Virus record (IMG/VR): IMGVR_UViG_3300031867_000006
Coordinates: 1-64,000 of that record
Length of the DNA: 64,000 bases
Source of the DNA: a virus
Lineage: Duplodnaviria; Caudoviricetes
Direction: 5' to 3' (one strand)
Below the pieces are notes generated by a model. It searched no databases, was not told the DNA's origin, and saw only the letters and a program-made list of their open reading frames with translations. Below are positions 1,287 to 60,694 of this stretch, piece by piece. Each line of letters starts with the position of its first letter. The first letter of the stretch is position 1. The translations under genes were made by a program, and so were the position numbers.

Positions 1287-1950
1287 ATTGTATAAATTGC
1301 TTGTAATTCAACGGTATTACATAGCTACACATAGTCAGATGATTCTCTGAGTAATCCATTTTAGGATAATCAGACTCTCTAACTTCGTATAATTTCTGTC
1401 TTGTCGATTTATCTATTAGATCATTATAGTATGATATTTTATAGATATCCTCAGGTCTAAGCCAAAATCCATTAGAGGTATAGAATACTTTATTCGCCTG
1501 ATCTAAACTCTTCGGTGAGTTTAGCCTTACGTGACCCTTCTGATGAAATAGATTTACATGAAGATTATGTGTAGTACAATAAGTGATTATAGCTTTGAAT
1601 AACTCTTGATTTTTAACAGGCTTACCATTAGTACCAAATAGCGTCCCTGTCGGACCAGCAGTAGCTATCCAGCTATCCATCCACTTCTTTATACCGTATA
1701 CTGTAAACTGGCTATCTGAATAGATGTAAATCTTATCATACTTATTAGGATAATATTGCATTATCTTCTCTGCCAATTTAATACCAATATAAACTGCAAG
1801 CATCTCCGATCTGTTATTAGTTGTATCAGGGCTAATTAGATAATCCTGCTCCCTATTATTAATGCAATAAGCTCCAGAACAACCAAATTGCCTACCATTC
1901 TCAAAATCACGAATAGAGGCATCTGTACAGATTTCTAATGTTTCCATCAT
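1285..1950 (-). CDS. rnhA: Ribonuclease HI
   Basis: ICTDAS, TTNNRSEMLA, IYSDSQF, W..W, PVKNQELF and HQKGH motifs of RNase HI. Confidence 0.9.
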   Translation of the reverse strand: MMETLEICTDASIRDFENGRQFGCSGAYCINNREQDYLISPDTTNNRSEMLAVYIGIKLAEKIMQYYPNKYDKIYIYSDSQFTVYGIKKWMDSWIATAGPTGTLFGTNGKPVKNQELFKAIITYCTTHNLHVNLFHQKGHVRLNSPKSLDQANKVFYTSNGFWLRPEDIYKISYYNDLIDKSTRQKLYEVRESDYPKMDYSENHLTMCSYVIPLNYKQFIQ

Positions 1951-3077: not shown

Positions 3078-3863
3078 TTATGTTCTCGGTTTACTATTAT
3101 CCACAATATAACACATAGTACGTTTCTCTTGTGGAACTACATTAATACCTCTCTTGATCTCGTCTACACGATCTGATATCATAGGTTTGGTTTCTTGGAT
3201 AGCCTTAACTTGATCACCACCGGCCTGCTTGATGTATATCTTGTGATCATTGAATAATTGCATCTGATCGCTATATTTATTATTTGCTGTAGCATCTTCT
3301 GCATTATCTATAGCATCCAGAACCTCACTGTCGATATAATCATAATAATCTTCCTTAAAGCACTTATAGTCGCCAAAGACCTTATCAGTAGGAATAAAGA
3401 AGAAATTATTATGAACCATCTCATGTACAGTCTGAGAGAGTGGTATCAACCCTACATGTTTCAAATAATGATTATACATAACCTCTTCAGCACAAGCGAA
3501 TATATCCATATTTTCTTTATTTCTAATCCGCTTTCTTACTACGGCTATACATATATCATATAATGTCATTGGTGAATGGTGAATCTCGACTTTAACACCA
3601 GAGTTATCTCTAGAAGATGCACCTTCGAGAACACTACATTCATCCATCCCAGCATATGTCTTAAGATATTGCACAAGCCATCTGTATTCGAATGACTTTC
3701 TACATACGCCTTCGAGATCCTTAATAAACTTAGCAAAATCTCTATCGTCAGTCAAATCATATTGATCTGCATCAAATCTGGGTACATTACCAATTTCGAT
3801 AGTGGTTGAACCGCCATCTTCATAGTAATCATTACCCTGGTTCATATACTCAACATTTACCAT
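3078..3863 (-). CDS. Hypothetical protein, possible HNH-like fold
   Basis: C...VEIHH...LIPLSQTVHEMVH pattern resembles HNH; start moved to ATG 3863 after GGAGG; ends in KRTMCYIVDN motif. Confidence 0.5.
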   Translation of the reverse strand: MVNVEYMNQGNDYYEDGGSTTIEIGNVPRFDADQYDLTDDRDFAKFIKDLEGVCRKSFEYRWLVQYLKTYAGMDECSVLEGASSRDNSGVKVEIHHSPMTLYDICIAVVRKRIRNKENMDIFACAEEVMYNHYLKHVGLIPLSQTVHEMVHNNFFFIPTDKVFGDYKCFKEDYYDYIDSEVLDAIDNAEDATANNKYSDQMQLFNDHKIYIKQAGGDQVKAIQETKPMISDRVDEIKRGINVVPQEKRTMCYIVDNSKPRT

Positions 3864-22717: not shown

Positions 22718-25465
22718 ATGCCTACATTAGTTAATATGGGCGGCGGTGCTACATCATTAGCATCTATTATACGTAGCATTAAAGTTACGCAGCAGCCTAA
22801 CAAAATGATATACGCAATGAATGAAGCGTTCGACACTACAGGTTTGCAGGTGTCCGCATTCTATGCGATGGGTAATAGTTCTGAAATCACAAACTGGACG
22901 ACTAGCCCTGCAGATGGCGATCCGATTACTACTAATCCCACAACGGTTACAGTATCCGCTAACGACGACAAGGGAAATGAGCATCATGTTACTTTCCAGG
23001 TTGTTTGTAAGTATGTAACTGGTATCGCTGTTACAACACCGCCTAACAAGACAAAGTATAAGGTTGGTGAGAATCTTGACACTACAGGCATGGTAGTTAC
23101 GGCTACATACTCTAATGGCGATACCGCTATTGTAACACCGGTAGTTTCCGCTAATGGACAGCCTGTGGCTAAGGGAACCTCATCGTTCAACATTTCTTAT
23201 ACTCAGGACGGTGTGACTGTAACGACCTCACAGGATATCACTGCAATATATCCTACAAGCTTATCGGTTACTTCTGTACCGACAAAGACTAAATATAAGG
23301 TTGGCGAGACATTCGATGATTCTAATATGATCGTAACAGCAATGTTCTCAGATAGCTCTACCACAGAGGTAGTTACAGCATCTTGTGCTTATGATACTAC
23401 TACTCCGTTTGTAAAGACGGATGATGCAGTTGCTATCTCATATACAGGATATGGTGAGACTGTTGCAACCTCCCAGGCTGTTACAGTTATTTACCCGACT
23501 TCTATTGCAGTTTCTACTGGATCTGCTAAGAGTAAGTATAAGGTTGGTGAAGCATTTGATTCTACCGGTATGGTTGTTACCGCAACATTCAGTGATAATA
23601 TAACTACTGAGGACGTAACAGCTTCTTGTACTTTGAGCCCTGATAATGGAGATACTCTTACAAAGAGTGCTACAGAAATTGCTGTTTCTTATACAGGATA
23701 TGGCGAGACTTGCACAACCACCCAGGCTATCACAATGATCTGGCCTACGAGTTTGTCGCTTGCAACCGCACCTACAAAGACCAAGTATAAAGTTGGAGAA
23801 ACCTTTGATGGTACTGGCATGACAGTTACCGCTACATTCAGTGATGGAACTACGACTGAGAATGTGACTTCATCGGCTACGTATGATAGTTCGACTGCAC
23901 TTGTTAAGGGTGCGACCACACATGCTATCGAGTACACAGGATACGGTGAGACAGTATCTTGCAACGCTAATATTAGCGTAATTTATCCTACATCGATTGC
24001 TGTTACAACAAATCCGACTAAGATGTCTTACGCCGGTGGCGAAGCTCTCAATCTCTCCGGAATGGTTATTACCGCAACATTCAGCGATAACTCTACTACG
24101 GAAGTTGTTAACTACACATCCTCTTCACCCGCAAATGGGGCTACACTTGCAGCCGGACAGAACACCAGAACTGTTACTATCACTTATACAGGATATGGCG
24201 AGACTTGCACAACATCCTTCGATGTATCTATGGTTTATCCTACAGCGGTTGCTCTTAAGTATACACCGGCAAACAATAATAGCTACATCGCAGATCAGCA
24301 GTTAGATCTTACTCCGTCTTCCGGTACAGTTACTTATACTATCACGTATAATAATGGATCTACATCTGATGTAACCAGCGGTGTAACTGTAAGTCCTGCT
24401 ATTGGCACGCAGCTTACTTCCAGCCATACTAAGTATACCCTGTCCTACACAGGTGGTGGCACAACTGTAACACATGATTACGACTTAACCATTAAGTATG
24501 TAACTTCTATTGCCGTTACCACAGAGCCGACTAAGAAGACTTACTTCTCCGGTGAATCGTTTGATAAGACTGGTATGGTTGTTACAGCGACATATTCTGA
24601 TAGTTCCACGGGGACCATTAGCAATAATGCTATTTCTATCACTCCTTCTGGAGCATTAAGCACGAGTAATTCGTATGTGACTATTAGTTATACCAATAAT
24701 GGTACCGCTCATACGACTACACAGTCTGTTACAGTTACTAACCCTATTGTTTCATGGGCTACTGGTACAGGCGCAGAGATCAAACAGATGATGGATGCTG
24801 TTGATGCTGGACAGATTACCCTTGCTGGTACTACATGGGCTGTTGGTAATGAAAGATCAGTACATCTTGCCGGTAACATTAATGAAGACGTTAAGTTTGT
24901 TGTTGAGGATATCGGTGGAACTACATCTGGTGGTACTGCGTATCATTTTGCCGTTGGTCAGAAAAATGGTTTATCGGCAACTCGACAGATGAATTCATCG
25001 GATACAAACTCCGGCGGGTACAACTCATCAGCAATGAAGACTTTTATTGAAGGTGATTATCAGACAGCACTTCAGAATGCCACTACAGGTAACTTCTGGG
25101 AAGCTGTAAAATCAGCAACACATAAATCGCAGATTTATAGCAGTGGTCTGCAGAGTACAACCGCGAAGGTTATTTTACATTCAATATTTGAAACTAATTC
25201 AAATAACACATTCTATAATAACAATTCGTGGAGTCAATATATGCCAGATGAAACTACAGCGAATGGGTTCCATCAATTTGAATGGTATAAGACCTCTGGA
25301 AACCGTATTAAGAAGCAAGGTGAGTCAGGCAGCGCGAATTACTCTTGGTCACGCTCAGCCGATACGGGCTACAGCTACCACTTCTGGCATGTTTATACAG
25401 GCGGTACAGCCACCGGCAGCACCGCGTCCAACAGTCTTCTGGTGGCCCCGTTCTGTGTCCTCTAA
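22718..25465 (+). CDS. DGR target protein: eight bacterial Ig-like (Big_3-type) repeats plus C-terminal C-type-lectin/DUF6273-like variable domain; likely receptor-binding fibre/adhesin
   Basis: Repeats SIAVTT.P.K..Y..GE.FD.TGMVVTAT(Y/F)SD; C-terminal W.RS...V...G.....A.....VAPFC encoded by the VR. Confidence 0.9.
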   Translation: MPTLVNMGGGATSLASIIRSIKVTQQPNKMIYAMNEAFDTTGLQVSAFYAMGNSSEITNWTTSPADGDPITTNPTTVTVSANDDKGNEHHVTFQVVCKYVTGIAVTTPPNKTKYKVGENLDTTGMVVTATYSNGDTAIVTPVVSANGQPVAKGTSSFNISYTQDGVTVTTSQDITAIYPTSLSVTSVPTKTKYKVGETFDDSNMIVTAMFSDSSTTEVVTASCAYDTTTPFVKTDDAVAISYTGYGETVATSQAVTVIYPTSIAVSTGSAKSKYKVGEAFDSTGMVVTATFSDNITTEDVTASCTLSPDNGDTLTKSATEIAVSYTGYGETCTTTQAITMIWPTSLSLATAPTKTKYKVGETFDGTGMTVTATFSDGTTTENVTSSATYDSSTALVKGATTHAIEYTGYGETVSCNANISVIYPTSIAVTTNPTKMSYAGGEALNLSGMVITATFSDNSTTEVVNYTSSSPANGATLAAGQNTRTVTITYTGYGETCTTSFDVSMVYPTAVALKYTPANNNSYIADQQLDLTPSSGTVTYTITYNNGSTSDVTSGVTVSPAIGTQLTSSHTKYTLSYTGGGTTVTHDYDLTIKYVTSIAVTTEPTKKTYFSGESFDKTGMVVTATYSDSSTGTISNNAISITPSGALSTSNSYVTISYTNNGTAHTTTQSVTVTNPIVSWATGTGAEIKQMMDAVDAGQITLAGTTWAVGNERSVHLAGNINEDVKFVVEDIGGTTSGGTAYHFAVGQKNGLSATRQMNSSDTNSGGYNSSAMKTFIEGDYQTALQNATTGNFWEAVKSATHKSQIYSSGLQSTTAKVILHSIFETNSNNTFYNNNSWSQYMPDETTANGFHQFEWYKTSGNRIKKQGESGSANYSWSRSADTGYSYHFWHVYTGGTATGSTASNSLLVAPFCVL
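25333..25459 (+). repeat. DGR variable repeat (VR)
   Basis: 127-bp ungapped match to TR with 18 mismatches, 17 of them at TR adenines. Confidence 0.97.
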
Positions 25466-25584: not shown

Positions 25585-26202
25585 GTGATTTATGTGTCGG
25601 TACCGGCATATAAAAGACAGTTATCATGTGTAGAGTATATAAATAGTGCTATGCAAATGGCTGCTTTATGTACAACTATGTATAATAAAGTTCCGCAAAA
25701 ATATAAATACCCGTTTGAACAGATGTTAAACATGTCTTACGATGCGTTATATCATCTAGATATGGCTAATAATACTAATTATAGAGAAACTAGCTTTGTT
25801 AATGATTATCTGTTTAAACGAAATAATATAACTTATGGTAAAGAAGAAATAAGAACTATAGGTTGTATTGCTGAGATTAATTTTGGTATTCTCGAAGCAA
25901 ATAATGTATTAAAGAAAAGAAACATTACTCACTATAGAGAAAATGTTGGAAGGATAGTTGATACTGAACTAAAAACTGCAAATGGTGTATTAAACTATCA
26001 TGCTAAGAAATTTAGAAATAAAATGAATGATTTGGGTATGACGATACAACAGGTTAATTCATACCCGCAAGCAATTAATGGTACAGGATTAAATGCGGTA
26101 AATCAATACATAAAAACCGCACCAATGAAAACCCAATTGGTTCCAAAGAATAACAACAATAAAGTAAGTATGTGTAAAATAATAGATAAAAAATCTGCTT
26201 AA
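25585..26202 (+). CDS. avd: DGR accessory variability determinant (Avd-like) with C-terminal extension
   Basis: Sits between VR and TR; helical, basic; SVPAYKRQLS.VEY N-terminus of the type seen in Firmicutes-phage Avd-like proteins. Confidence 0.7.
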   Translation: MIYVSVPAYKRQLSCVEYINSAMQMAALCTTMYNKVPQKYKYPFEQMLNMSYDALYHLDMANNTNYRETSFVNDYLFKRNNITYGKEEIRTIGCIAEINFGILEANNVLKKRNITHYRENVGRIVDTELKTANGVLNYHAKKFRNKMNDLGMTIQQVNSYPQAINGTGLNAVNQYIKTAPMKTQLVPKNNNNKVSMCKIIDKKSA

Positions 26203-26303: not shown

Positions 26304-26430
26304 CGCGAATAACTCTTGGTCACGCTCAGCCAATACGAACAACGGCAACAACTTCTGGAATGTTAATACAGACGGTACAGCCAACAACAACAACGCGTCC
26401 AACAGTAATCTGGTGGCCCCGTTCTGTGTC
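26304..26430 (+). ncRNA. DGR template repeat (TR)
   Basis: AAC/AAT-rich copy of the VR (39 adenines, 15 AAY codons in target frame) between avd and RT; the spacer to 26755 is probably part of the DGR RNA. Confidence 0.95.
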
Positions 26431-26755: not shown

Positions 26756-28000
26756 ATGAGTTACGCAAATTATATTGATCCTAAATATAGGATTCCTTTC
26801 GAATATGTAGCTAATTTTGAACCGATGTATAATGCATGTTATGAATGTCTTACTGGAGTTATGTGGAAAGCCAGTGCTCAAAATTTTTGTTTTAATTTAG
26901 ATCAAATAGCATATCAGCTATCAATGGAATTATTATATGGTATTTATAGGTCTAATGGATTTTCAAATTTTAAAATAAATGAGAGGGGTAAAATTAGAGA
27001 TATTCATTCGGTTCATATAACAGAAAGAGCTGTCCAAAAATCATTAGTTCAAAATGGATTAAGACCCATTATAGCACCTAGATTAATATCTGCTAATTGT
27101 GCTACTCTTCCGGGAAGAGGAACAGATTATGCTTTAGATTTATTAAGAATTCATTTATTTAATCATGTAAAAGAACATGGTCTTGAAGGTGGAATTCTTA
27201 CTATGGATTATCATGCTTATTATGATTCTGTAGTTCATAGTATATTACTTAATGACCTTAGACAAATAATCTGGGATGATAGAATATTCATGCTTTCGCA
27301 GTATTTCATCGATATGTTTACTAATATGGAGGCTGTATCTAAGCATGGATTTGCGTATAACCAAGTTGCTCAAGAAATAGTTGCTGAAACTCAAGAAGAG
27401 TCAGTTAGTACATGTAATGAAGATGAAGAATATATGCTTGAGAAATTTGGGCCTAGAGGATTGGGTCTAGGCTCAGAAATATCGCAAATTACGGCAATAT
27501 TTTATCCAAATCCAATAGATCATTATATAAAAGAACAACTTAGAATTAAAGGCTATGCTAGATATATGGACGATAGCTATCTTATATCTAACGATTTAGG
27601 ATATCTAAATTATTGTAAAGATGTAATAACTGATATGTCACTTAAAAGAGGATTAGTATTTAATCCAAATAAATTAGTTATTACTCCATTTAAAAGCGGA
27701 AAGGGTAATTCATTTGTTTATTTAAAGAAGCACTGCCATTTCACAAATACCGGAAAATTAATTATGGAAATATCAGATAAAGCTATAACTAAACATAGAC
27801 AACAACTTCTTACGCAGTATGAGTTATTCATACGTGGCAGGATGACTATAGATGAAGTTTATCAATCATTTATGTGCTGGAGAGAATCTGTTAAGAAATA
27901 TAACTCAAGAAATTCATTATTTGATTTAACTCAATTATTTTTCTATTTATTTAGAGGTTATATAAATCCAGTAATGAAGGATAAACTAAATAATATCTAA
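26756..28000 (+). CDS. DGR reverse transcriptase
   Basis: ERGKIRDI, ERAVQ, GRGTDYA, MDYHAYYDS, GLGLGSEISQ and YARYMDD motifs; adjacent TR/VR pair. Confidence 0.95.
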   Translation: MSYANYIDPKYRIPFEYVANFEPMYNACYECLTGVMWKASAQNFCFNLDQIAYQLSMELLYGIYRSNGFSNFKINERGKIRDIHSVHITERAVQKSLVQNGLRPIIAPRLISANCATLPGRGTDYALDLLRIHLFNHVKEHGLEGGILTMDYHAYYDSVVHSILLNDLRQIIWDDRIFMLSQYFIDMFTNMEAVSKHGFAYNQVAQEIVAETQEESVSTCNEDEEYMLEKFGPRGLGLGSEISQITAIFYPNPIDHYIKEQLRIKGYARYMDDSYLISNDLGYLNYCKDVITDMSLKRGLVFNPNKLVITPFKSGKGNSFVYLKKHCHFTNTGKLIMEISDKAITKHRQQLLTQYELFIRGRMTIDEVYQSFMCWRESVKKYNSRNSLFDLTQLFFYLFRGYINPVMKDKLNNI

Positions 28001-60541: not shown

Positions 60542-60694
60542 TTAGGCAGTCTTAGCTTCCTTCTCTTTATCTACTATTCTACACATAACCACTTTCTTAG
60601 GCGGTTTACCCTTAGCTTTGATATAATCGTTCAATTCCGTATCTGTCATTGATGTCAATATATCTAAAAAGTCTTTTCTAGACATCTTTTTCAT
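60542..60694 (-). CDS. 50-aa basic protein
   Basis: Not in ORF track; AGGAGG RBS; MKKMSRKDFLDILTSMTDTELNDYIKAKGKPPKKVVMCRIVDKEKEAKTA. Confidence 0.75.
   Translation of the reverse strand: MKKMSRKDFLDILTSMTDTELNDYIKAKGKPPKKVVMCRIVDKEKEAKTA

Follow-up and report, generated by a model that had tools for sequence, protein, structure and literature searches.

A shared C-terminal tag on DNA-acting proteins and on a retroelement accessory protein of an uncultured jumbo phage, with a clamp-fold protein as its candidate reader

The PCNA/PIP-box system (PCNA-interacting protein box, Q-x-x-L-x-x-F-F) joins a DNA-bound hub to a short linear motif and serves dozens of clients, including nucleases and methyltransferase, as well as tiny proteins consisting of hardly anything but the motif, among them p21-type small competitors. 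In phages T4 and RB69, terminal hydrophobic peptides (the tails of gp43, gp33 and gp55, and a ligase peptide) dock several DNA and transcription proteins on one sliding clamp, gp45 (PDB 1B77, 6DRT). The jumbo phages PhiKZ and Goslar have a split DNA polymerase whose clamp-derived subunit, Rhc, is an RNase H-clamp protein, and the 2026 preprints on Rhc make no mention of a C-terminal tag common to several proteins (PMC13648687, PMC13648698). In chimallin phage-nucleus import, DNA-acting phage proteins must be sorted to phage DNA. Diversity-generating retroelements (DGRs), in turn, encode the accessory protein Avd (bAvd of BPP-1, Avd of Roseburia phage Shimadzu) between a target bearing the variable repeat (VR) and the template repeat (TR) with its reverse transcriptase (RT). 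Here we analyzed a window of 64 kb, the first part of the 165,769-bp contig IMGVR_UViG_3300031867_000006 (G000 in our comparisons), in which an Avd-like protein of a DGR ends in a short motif, K-x-x-M-C-x-I-I-D-K, that recurs at the C-termini of other proteins of the same phage and may be read by a clamp-fold protein.

The locus resembles each of these systems in part. As with gp45, a clamp-fold protein of the ~210-230-amino acid (aa) class is encoded with replication genes (VIA Z 9.4-9.6 to gp45). In contrast to T4 and RB69, the motif is an unrelated one, further client classes are present (HNH homing endonucleases, DnaB, methyltransferase, helix-turn-helix [HTH] protein and DGR Avd), the polymerase N subunit bears three tandem copies, and our searches revealed no gp44/62-like loader. 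The motif shares with the PIP box its brevity, its many clients and its occurrence on tiny proteins, whereas its beta-strand-like pattern (h-h-x-h-h, h being hydrophobic) with charged flanks contains neither Q nor an aromatic pair and belongs to a phage setting. Like the Rhc phages, this one has a split B-family polymerase (~640-aa N subunit, C subunit elsewhere) and a clamp-derived accessory protein; unlike in those phages, RNase H has a gene of its own and the clamp-fold protein stands alone, while Rhc contacts the C subunit. The Avd-like protein agrees with Avd in its place, a predicted ~130-aa helical core and a weak similarity, and differs in ~70 extra residues that end in the phage tag and in having no Pfam bAvd match. 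Compared with chimallin-based import, the locus offers a clear linear C-terminal motif and no chimallin that we could find. Full-text literature searches did not turn up a tag of this kind, homing endonucleases bearing clamp-binding motifs, or any connection of Avd to a clamp.

The contig has 36% G+C and is 59% complete according to CheckV, and uncultured close relatives in IMG/VR measure 239-266 kb. Given this incompleteness and the size of the relatives, the contig is a fragment of a ~250-kb jumbo phage of the AR9/PBS1-like kind, which encodes a multisubunit RNA polymerase (msRNAP) and is reported to lack chimallin. The nearest counterparts of its multisubunit RNA polymerase (RNAP) and B-family DNA polymerase, at 26-32% identity, are those of the AR9/PBS1, Staphylococcus and phiR1-37 jumbo phages. 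Three relatives (G001, G003 and G005; G003 is 96% complete) were taken whole for comparison, and orthologs were paired by BLAST.

Our pattern scans indicated that the motif belongs to protein ends. Translated in six frames, the window contains M-C-x-[IV]-[IV]-D at exactly three places, all of them 4-8 residues ahead of the stop of a real-looking open reading frame (ORF), and the three tails reported in the initial annotation, on the Avd-like protein, a 261-aa protein and a 50-aa protein, are all present (Table 1). Across the six frames of the whole contig, seven of the eight occurrences lie 0-23 residues from a stop. Among 201 contig ORFs, the shorter pattern M-C-x-[IV]-[IV] has 12 matches within the 30 C-terminal residues and two in the bodies, and with a basic lead, [KR]-x(1-2)-M-C-x-[IV]-[IV], the counts are 12 and 0. 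Residue shuffling (300 rounds) gave a mean of 0.05 tail matches and a maximum of 1, and the positional bias toward tails has a binomial P of 3e-9; the genome-wide C-terminal enrichment over shuffled controls is therefore strong (12 against 0.05). When gapped four-residue words were scanned de novo, M-C-x-I-V ranked as the top tail-enriched word in G000 and in two relatives. The consensus is [KR]-x-x-M-[CV]-x-[IV]-[IV]-[DNE], read in this genome as [KR]-x-x-M-C-x-I-V-D, and consists of basic residues, two hydrophobic residues, any residue, two hydrophobic residues and then D, N or E. It stands on at least 14 ORFs of the contig, 0-23 residues from the stop. As initially proposed, conservation is at the protein level, since synonymous codon positions vary among the copies at every position that allows it (TGT/TGC, ATA/ATT, GTG/GTA/GTC/GTT, AGA/CGT), which argues for selection on the protein. 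In the 20 residues before the tags, the share of disorder-promoting residues was 0.65 vs 0.57 in G000, with no enrichment in G001 or G003; a general low-complexity linker is not claimed, the enrichment being slight and limited to G000.

The carriers that could be named include no structural proteins. In the contig they are the 640-aa N subunit of polymerase B, with its three tandem copies, the RNAP beta' subunit, a 509-aa superfamily (SF) helicase, the Avd-like protein, the 261-aa HNH-like protein of family phrog_12252, and five or six HNH endonucleases of two families. Carriers without an assigned function comprise proteins of 251 and 129 aa and mini-proteins of 50, 55 and 57 aa. Further carriers come from the 96%-complete relative, namely RNAP beta, a DNA methyltransferase, a DnaB-like helicase and a 70-aa HTH protein. 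Neither the DGR RT nor the polymerase C subunit nor the other RNAP pieces bear the tag, which fits an arrangement of one tag per complex. The three window proteins had been described as unrelated; their sequences are indeed otherwise dissimilar, but the 261-aa protein is probably an HNH-like nuclease, as the ESM atlas leads to HNH and T5 nicking-endonuclease clusters, and so it is not functionally unrelated to the others. Orthologs of this phrog_12252 protein were found in 5/5 relatives searched.

The evidence for a common reader comes from the way in which the tag changes between lineages. We compared 11 ortholog sets (RNAP beta and beta', DnaB, SF helicase, phrog_12252, the 50-aa protein, proteins of 129, 215 and 231 aa, the polymerase N subunit, and RNase H) across G000, G001 and G003, whose tags are of the Met type, and G005. 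The tag is kept in orthologs of 46-67% identity, and it shifts in step in a single lineage: Met is present in 29/29 tails of G000, G001 and G003 vs 0/11 in G005, where the dialect is roughly [AVIL]-[IVC]-x-[KR]-V and, in a tighter summary, about [AV]-I-K-R-V. The loss of the same Met from 11 unrelated proteins together in one lineage suggests that one partner reads all of them, and all copies of the tag would then co-evolve with that partner. The Met-type genomes also contain M-V tags, in which Cys is replaced, and the polymerase tails of 30 metagenomic lineages display M-C, M-V, M-Y, M-F, L-C and Met-less dialects. Special cysteine chemistry was ruled out, as V, I, A, Y or F takes the place of Cys in other tags or lineages; a mini split-intein N-fragment with Cys after the junction was likewise rejected, because Cys is replaceable and some tags end directly after D. 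Collectively, our findings indicate that the motif is very probably a docking or targeting tag that its carriers have in common and that a single partner reads.

The DGR in the window is a plain case, with a VR/TR pair, adenine-specific differences and an RT. VR and TR differ at 18 of 127 bp, and 17 of the 18 mismatches fall at TR adenines. Between the two repeats lies the Avd-like ORF (its database copy begins at residue 4), which encodes a predicted ~130-aa helical core followed by a ~70-aa extension that ends in the tag. BLASTP matched its residues 36-120 to the annotated Avd of Roseburia phage Shimadzu (E 0.013), and the ESM atlas led to Avd-like/bAvd clusters (score 0.85). Its AlphaFold2 (AF2) model is poor (predicted local distance difference test [pLDDT], 42) and displays four long helices and then the extension, too poorly for a fold search. 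The protein has no Pfam match at E<=1, and neither has the annotated Shimadzu Avd. On the grounds of position and weak similarity, we call it Avd-like. The Shimadzu phage, whose RT is the nearest to this RT in the phage collection, provides the untailed form that the initial annotation had taken as typical: its Avd has 136 aa, stops at the end of the helical core and is tagless. Together with the C-terminal enrichment and the conservation in orthologs, this supports the original suggestion of a phage-specific docking or localization tag.

The distribution of DGRs in this phage group bears on how the tag came to its place. The sole detectable homolog of the Avd-like protein among 5.8 billion proteins (P0002, 31-37% identity) has two tandem terminal tags. 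G001 carries a different DGR (175040-179272), whose RT has 32% identity and which comprises, besides a TR-like stretch, a DUF6273 target and an accessory ORF of 242 aa; that accessory ORF has nothing in common with the Avd-like protein except the terminal tag. The relatives G003 and G005 have no DGR. DGR distribution is thus patchy in this group, and nothing supports the grafting of a tag to connect an acquired DGR more strongly than the presence of the local tag on two DGR accessory proteins that are unrelated to each other. With one tag per DGR complex, on the Avd-like protein and not on the RT, the tag would recruit the Avd-RT complex to phage DNA that is being replicated, and given the patchy distribution, it would be a route for plugging an acquired DGR into the replication factory of the phage.

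Structural modeling pointed to a candidate for the reader. A 211-aa protein is encoded directly after the polymerase N subunit, and its gene follows the polymerase in 17/17 related loci. Its family (~99 representatives) is uniform in length, at 200-220 aa. The AF2 model, which is of a monomer, is of high quality (pLDDT, 95.9), and the top 50 PDB matches in Foldseek are all sliding clamps or processivity factors, with VIA Z values of 9-10.4 over ~190 of the 211 residues to Rad1, PCNA, T4 gp45, beta clamp and UL42. Residues 1-211 superpose on PCNA 2-255 and gp45 1-223 with a root mean square deviation of 3.7-4.5 over 182-195 residues. Among the viral models of BFVD, the matches are uncultured myovirus proteins, chimallivirus RNase H-clamp proteins, PCNAs and beta clamps. 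According to these models, the protein has the two-domain clamp fold over its whole length. At the level of sequence, it has no Pfam or NCBIfam match, a profile of 86 homologs finds no clamp in the PDB, and a tblastn search of 50,697 phage records (cultured phages) returned no match. PhiKZ Rhc was tried as a sequence relative, and hhalign of the profile against PhiKZ gp155 gave no signal. AR9 was set aside as a cultured model, since its polymerase N-subunit tail is tagless and its gp128 is only weakly clamp-like (hhalign E 0.03). AR9 gp128 (L028:6627-7343), a hypothetical protein of 238 aa, is encoded at the syntenic position, with the polymerase N subunit/RNase H on one side and a virion protein on the other.

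If the clamp-fold protein is the reader, it would be a hub on replicating phage DNA, as PCNA is for PIP boxes or gp45 is in T4. The polymerase tails of the 30 lineages carry, at the mode, three tags at a spacing of 12 residues, which would fit the three pockets of a trimeric two-domain clamp; the polymerase would grip the clamp-fold protein through its three tandem tags, and single-tag clients would be recruited transiently. In the comparison of Met-type with Met-less lineages, the clamp differs at columns 10, 31 (I/V to Y/F), 46 and 206. Among 86 clamp homologs, 24 have Y or F at position 31. Positions 31 and 206 presumably lie at the PIP pocket of PCNA, a placement based on the end-points of the alignment only. 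More pairs of clamp and polymerase tail were sought: a metagenome scan gave one locus, and two further viral scans and a genome-contig scan gave no new lineage.

Several observations weigh against the clamp-fold protein as reader. The Met-less lineages form one clade, so the covariation of clamp and tag amounts to one event, without statistical weight. Known clamp-binding consensuses are Q-x-x-L-x-x-F-F, Q-L-[SD]-L-F and the T4-type hydrophobic-acidic tail. The tag fits none of these, and its client range (HTH regulator, methyltransferase, DnaB, Avd) is broader than that of any known phage clamp. A clamp loader of the AAA+/RFC-like type did not emerge either: PF13177 had no match, and no loader is conserved in the 96-98% complete relatives, although divergent loaders could escape such searches. 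PF00004 (AAA) had one strong match, in G000 only and without a counterpart in the near-complete relatives. This match (88.6 bits) belongs to a 406-aa ORF at contig 81383-81772 (-), for which no counterpart was detected in G003 or G005 and which is not a conserved clamp loader. Furthermore, the tail of the polymerase C subunit, N-F-P-L-x-S-I-G-L ... V-N-Y-S-N-I-[IV]-x-L, is invariant in all four genomes independently of the dialect and may be the canonical contact between polymerase and clamp. The corresponding clamp-derived domain of PhiKZ is reported to be a monomer that touches the C subunit of its polymerase rather than the N subunit (PMC13648687). Taking the two sides together, we hold the whole statement, a shared tag read by the clamp-fold protein, to be possible and place it slightly below even odds, at a probability of about 0.45.

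Among the other explanations, the one that survives best regards the tag as an address or import signal for a DNA compartment or condensate that chimallin-less jumbo phages would build; an importer or shell protein would recognize it, and each complex would carry one tag. The carriers are essentially all DNA-acting proteins and include selfish HNH endonucleases, methyltransferase, HTH protein and DGR accessory proteins, a breadth more easily explained by access control than by recruitment to the fork. One tag per multi-subunit complex also fits piggy-back import, and the in-step dialect change is compatible with any single reader. To our knowledge, no linear import signal is known in nucleus-forming phages. 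What makes this explanation unlikely in our judgment is that no candidate shell or importer was identified here, and that PhiKZ gp54 as query found no chimallin at E<=1 in G000, G001, G003 or G005, in a single-sequence and hence weak search that a distant or different shell could escape; chimallin has also been reported to be absent from PBS1-like msRNAP phages (10.1101/2023.02.24.529968). A bolder version would make the tag a linear targeting signal, the first in any bacteriophage, by which a dedicated phage receptor lets proteins into a so far unseen DNA compartment or factory, so that selfish homing endonucleases and acquired DGRs need the local dialect to work; we regard this as unlikely.

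The one-clade dialect shift would also be expected from a host switch, which raises the question of whether a host protein (a replisome, nucleoid or RNA polymerase component) reads the tag and the G005 dialect reflects a different host. Our data contain no physical tie of the tag to a phage protein, which leaves room for such a reader. We nevertheless find it quite unlikely: the phages supply their own polymerases and clamp-fold protein, the tag is unlike the bacterial beta-clamp-binding consensus (Q-L-[SD]-L-F), and the many polymerase-tail dialects among close lineages suggest fast co-evolution within the phage.

Tags that bind each other would dispense with a separate reader altogether, through beta-strand zippering in a multivalent replication/transcription condensate with the triple-tag polymerase as scaffold. 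The predicted short hydrophobic beta-strand with charged flanks and the ~three polymerase copies at 12-residue spacing would suit this arrangement, and mutual compatibility would impose in-step change as well. The AF2 secondary structure of the tail is of low confidence, however, and we know of no phage precedent for self-association of this kind, lone five-residue strands seldom associating specifically with themselves; we therefore see it as very unlikely. Also very unlikely is a C-terminal degron or processing site through which a phage or host protease would time the turnover of DNA enzymes. The tails are C-terminal and exposed, and a protease or adaptor as common reader would account for the in-step change; yet three tandem copies on an essential polymerase, kept in 30 lineages, are hard to rationalize for a degron, and a distance of 0-23 residues to the terminus is unlike degrons read from the terminus. 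Finally, only the shortness of the motif speaks for a coincidental likeness or for a repeat at the DNA level (promoter, terminator, intron or its remnant, homing site) read in frame, and this explanation is already refuted by the shuffles (0.05 vs 12 tail matches), the varying synonymous sites, the constantly in-frame position at ORF ends and the conservation in orthologs of 46-67% identity.

Table 1. Positions of the features discussed (window numbering unless marked as contig)
Feature	Position	Strand	Remarks
DGR target protein	22718..25465	+	Pfam: Big_3 repeats, DUF6273 C-terminal domain; contains VR 25333-25459
Avd-like accessory ORF, 205 aa	25585..26202	+	Between VR and TR, upstream of RT
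Tag K-x-x-M-C-x-I-I-D-K on Avd-like protein	26161..26190	+	3 residues ahead of stop
DGR template repeat (TR)	26304..26430	+	Gapless 127-bp alignment to VR
DGR reverse transcriptase, 414 aa, tagless	26756..28000	+	RVT_1 E 2.6e-10; phrog_1423 E 6e-55
211-aa clamp-fold protein	contig 158818-159453	-	ORF directly after, and overlapping the end of, the polymerase N-subunit gene
Polymerase C subunit	contig 138057-139919	-	Separate from the 640-aa N subunit (split polymerase)
261-aa protein, family phrog_12252	3078..3863	-	phrog_12252 E 1.3e-43; tag-bearing
Tag of 261-aa protein	3096..3125	-	M-C kept in G001 and G003 orthologs; L-V-A-K-V in G005 ortholog
50-aa mini-protein	60542..60694	-	Short conserved helical head and tag; strong ribosome-binding site upstream
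Tag of 50-aa protein	60566..60595	-	G005 ortholog A-C-R-V-V, Met lost
RNase H, 221 aa	1285..1950	-	NCBIfam RNase HI E 2.6e-13
Variant L-T-M-C-S-Y-V-I on RNase H	1315..1338	-	Tag-like; possibly a true tag
Tandem mini-ORFs, 55 and 57 aa	contig 122871-123201	-	Both tag-terminated

The 50-aa ORF has a AAAGGAGG site upstream, a strong ribosome-binding site, and tblastn found its orthologs in G001, G003 and G005 (49-65% identity over 40-45 aa, covering a conserved head of ~25 residues and the tag), from which we conclude that it is a real gene. Its head (window 60596-60694, -; D-F-L..L.S-M-T-D-T-E-L-N-D-Y-I-K) may resemble a helix-extended-helix (SAP/Rho-N-like) DNA-binding motif. The tandem mini-ORFs of 55 and 57 aa are similar over their final 22-39 residues to the tail region of the G001 phrog_12252 protein; as judged from this similarity, a linker-plus-tag module can be copied alone, which suggests that it was duplicated on its own. 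The weaker variant mentioned in the initial annotation for RNase H is present as well, and RNase H orthologs keep h-[CA]-x-Y-V-[IV]-P, with no Met in the G005 copy. Overall, the tag is modular, being gained, lost and duplicated, and its carriers include selfish HNH genes as well as two DGR accessory proteins that are unrelated to each other.

Two further observations concern the surroundings of these genes. A different ending, G-D-x-L-V, closes six small ORFs of the contig (92262-93089, 155230-155816, 161698-162266). In the G005 lineage (160-166 kb) and at locus L079 (1898-2020), inserts split both polymerase subunit genes; they contain HNH genes and a repeated pseudo-ORF (...F-K-G-F-S-P-T-H-L-S-R-T-P...) and look like intron-type mobile elements. 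The HNH genes in these inserts bear the local Met-less tag.

By analogy, the finding would be a variant of the known principle of a clamp or hub with a short linear motif, here with a putative reader, to which our analysis contributes a connection to DGRs, a dialect test carried out ortholog by ortholog, evidence on the fold, and counter-evidence. If the tag is a hub-docking peptide, the replication and transcription factory network of a large group of uncultured jumbo phages would be readable from sequence alone: ORFs ending in the local dialect would be predicted to work on phage DNA, and several ORFs without known function, including the mini-proteins of 50-57 aa, would be given a place of action. 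The in-step dialect shift would offer a testable specificity switch, with Met-type and Met-less tags on one side and clamp position 31 on the other. The tagged Avd-like protein, if the reading is true, would be the first case known to us of a DGR accessory protein physically wired to a replisome-type hub, and such a link bears on where and when DGR complementary DNA integrates into the target gene. More broadly, our findings suggest that mobile elements such as HNH homing endonucleases and DGRs must adopt the tag dialect of the resident phage, which would constitute a compatibility barrier to horizontal transfer.

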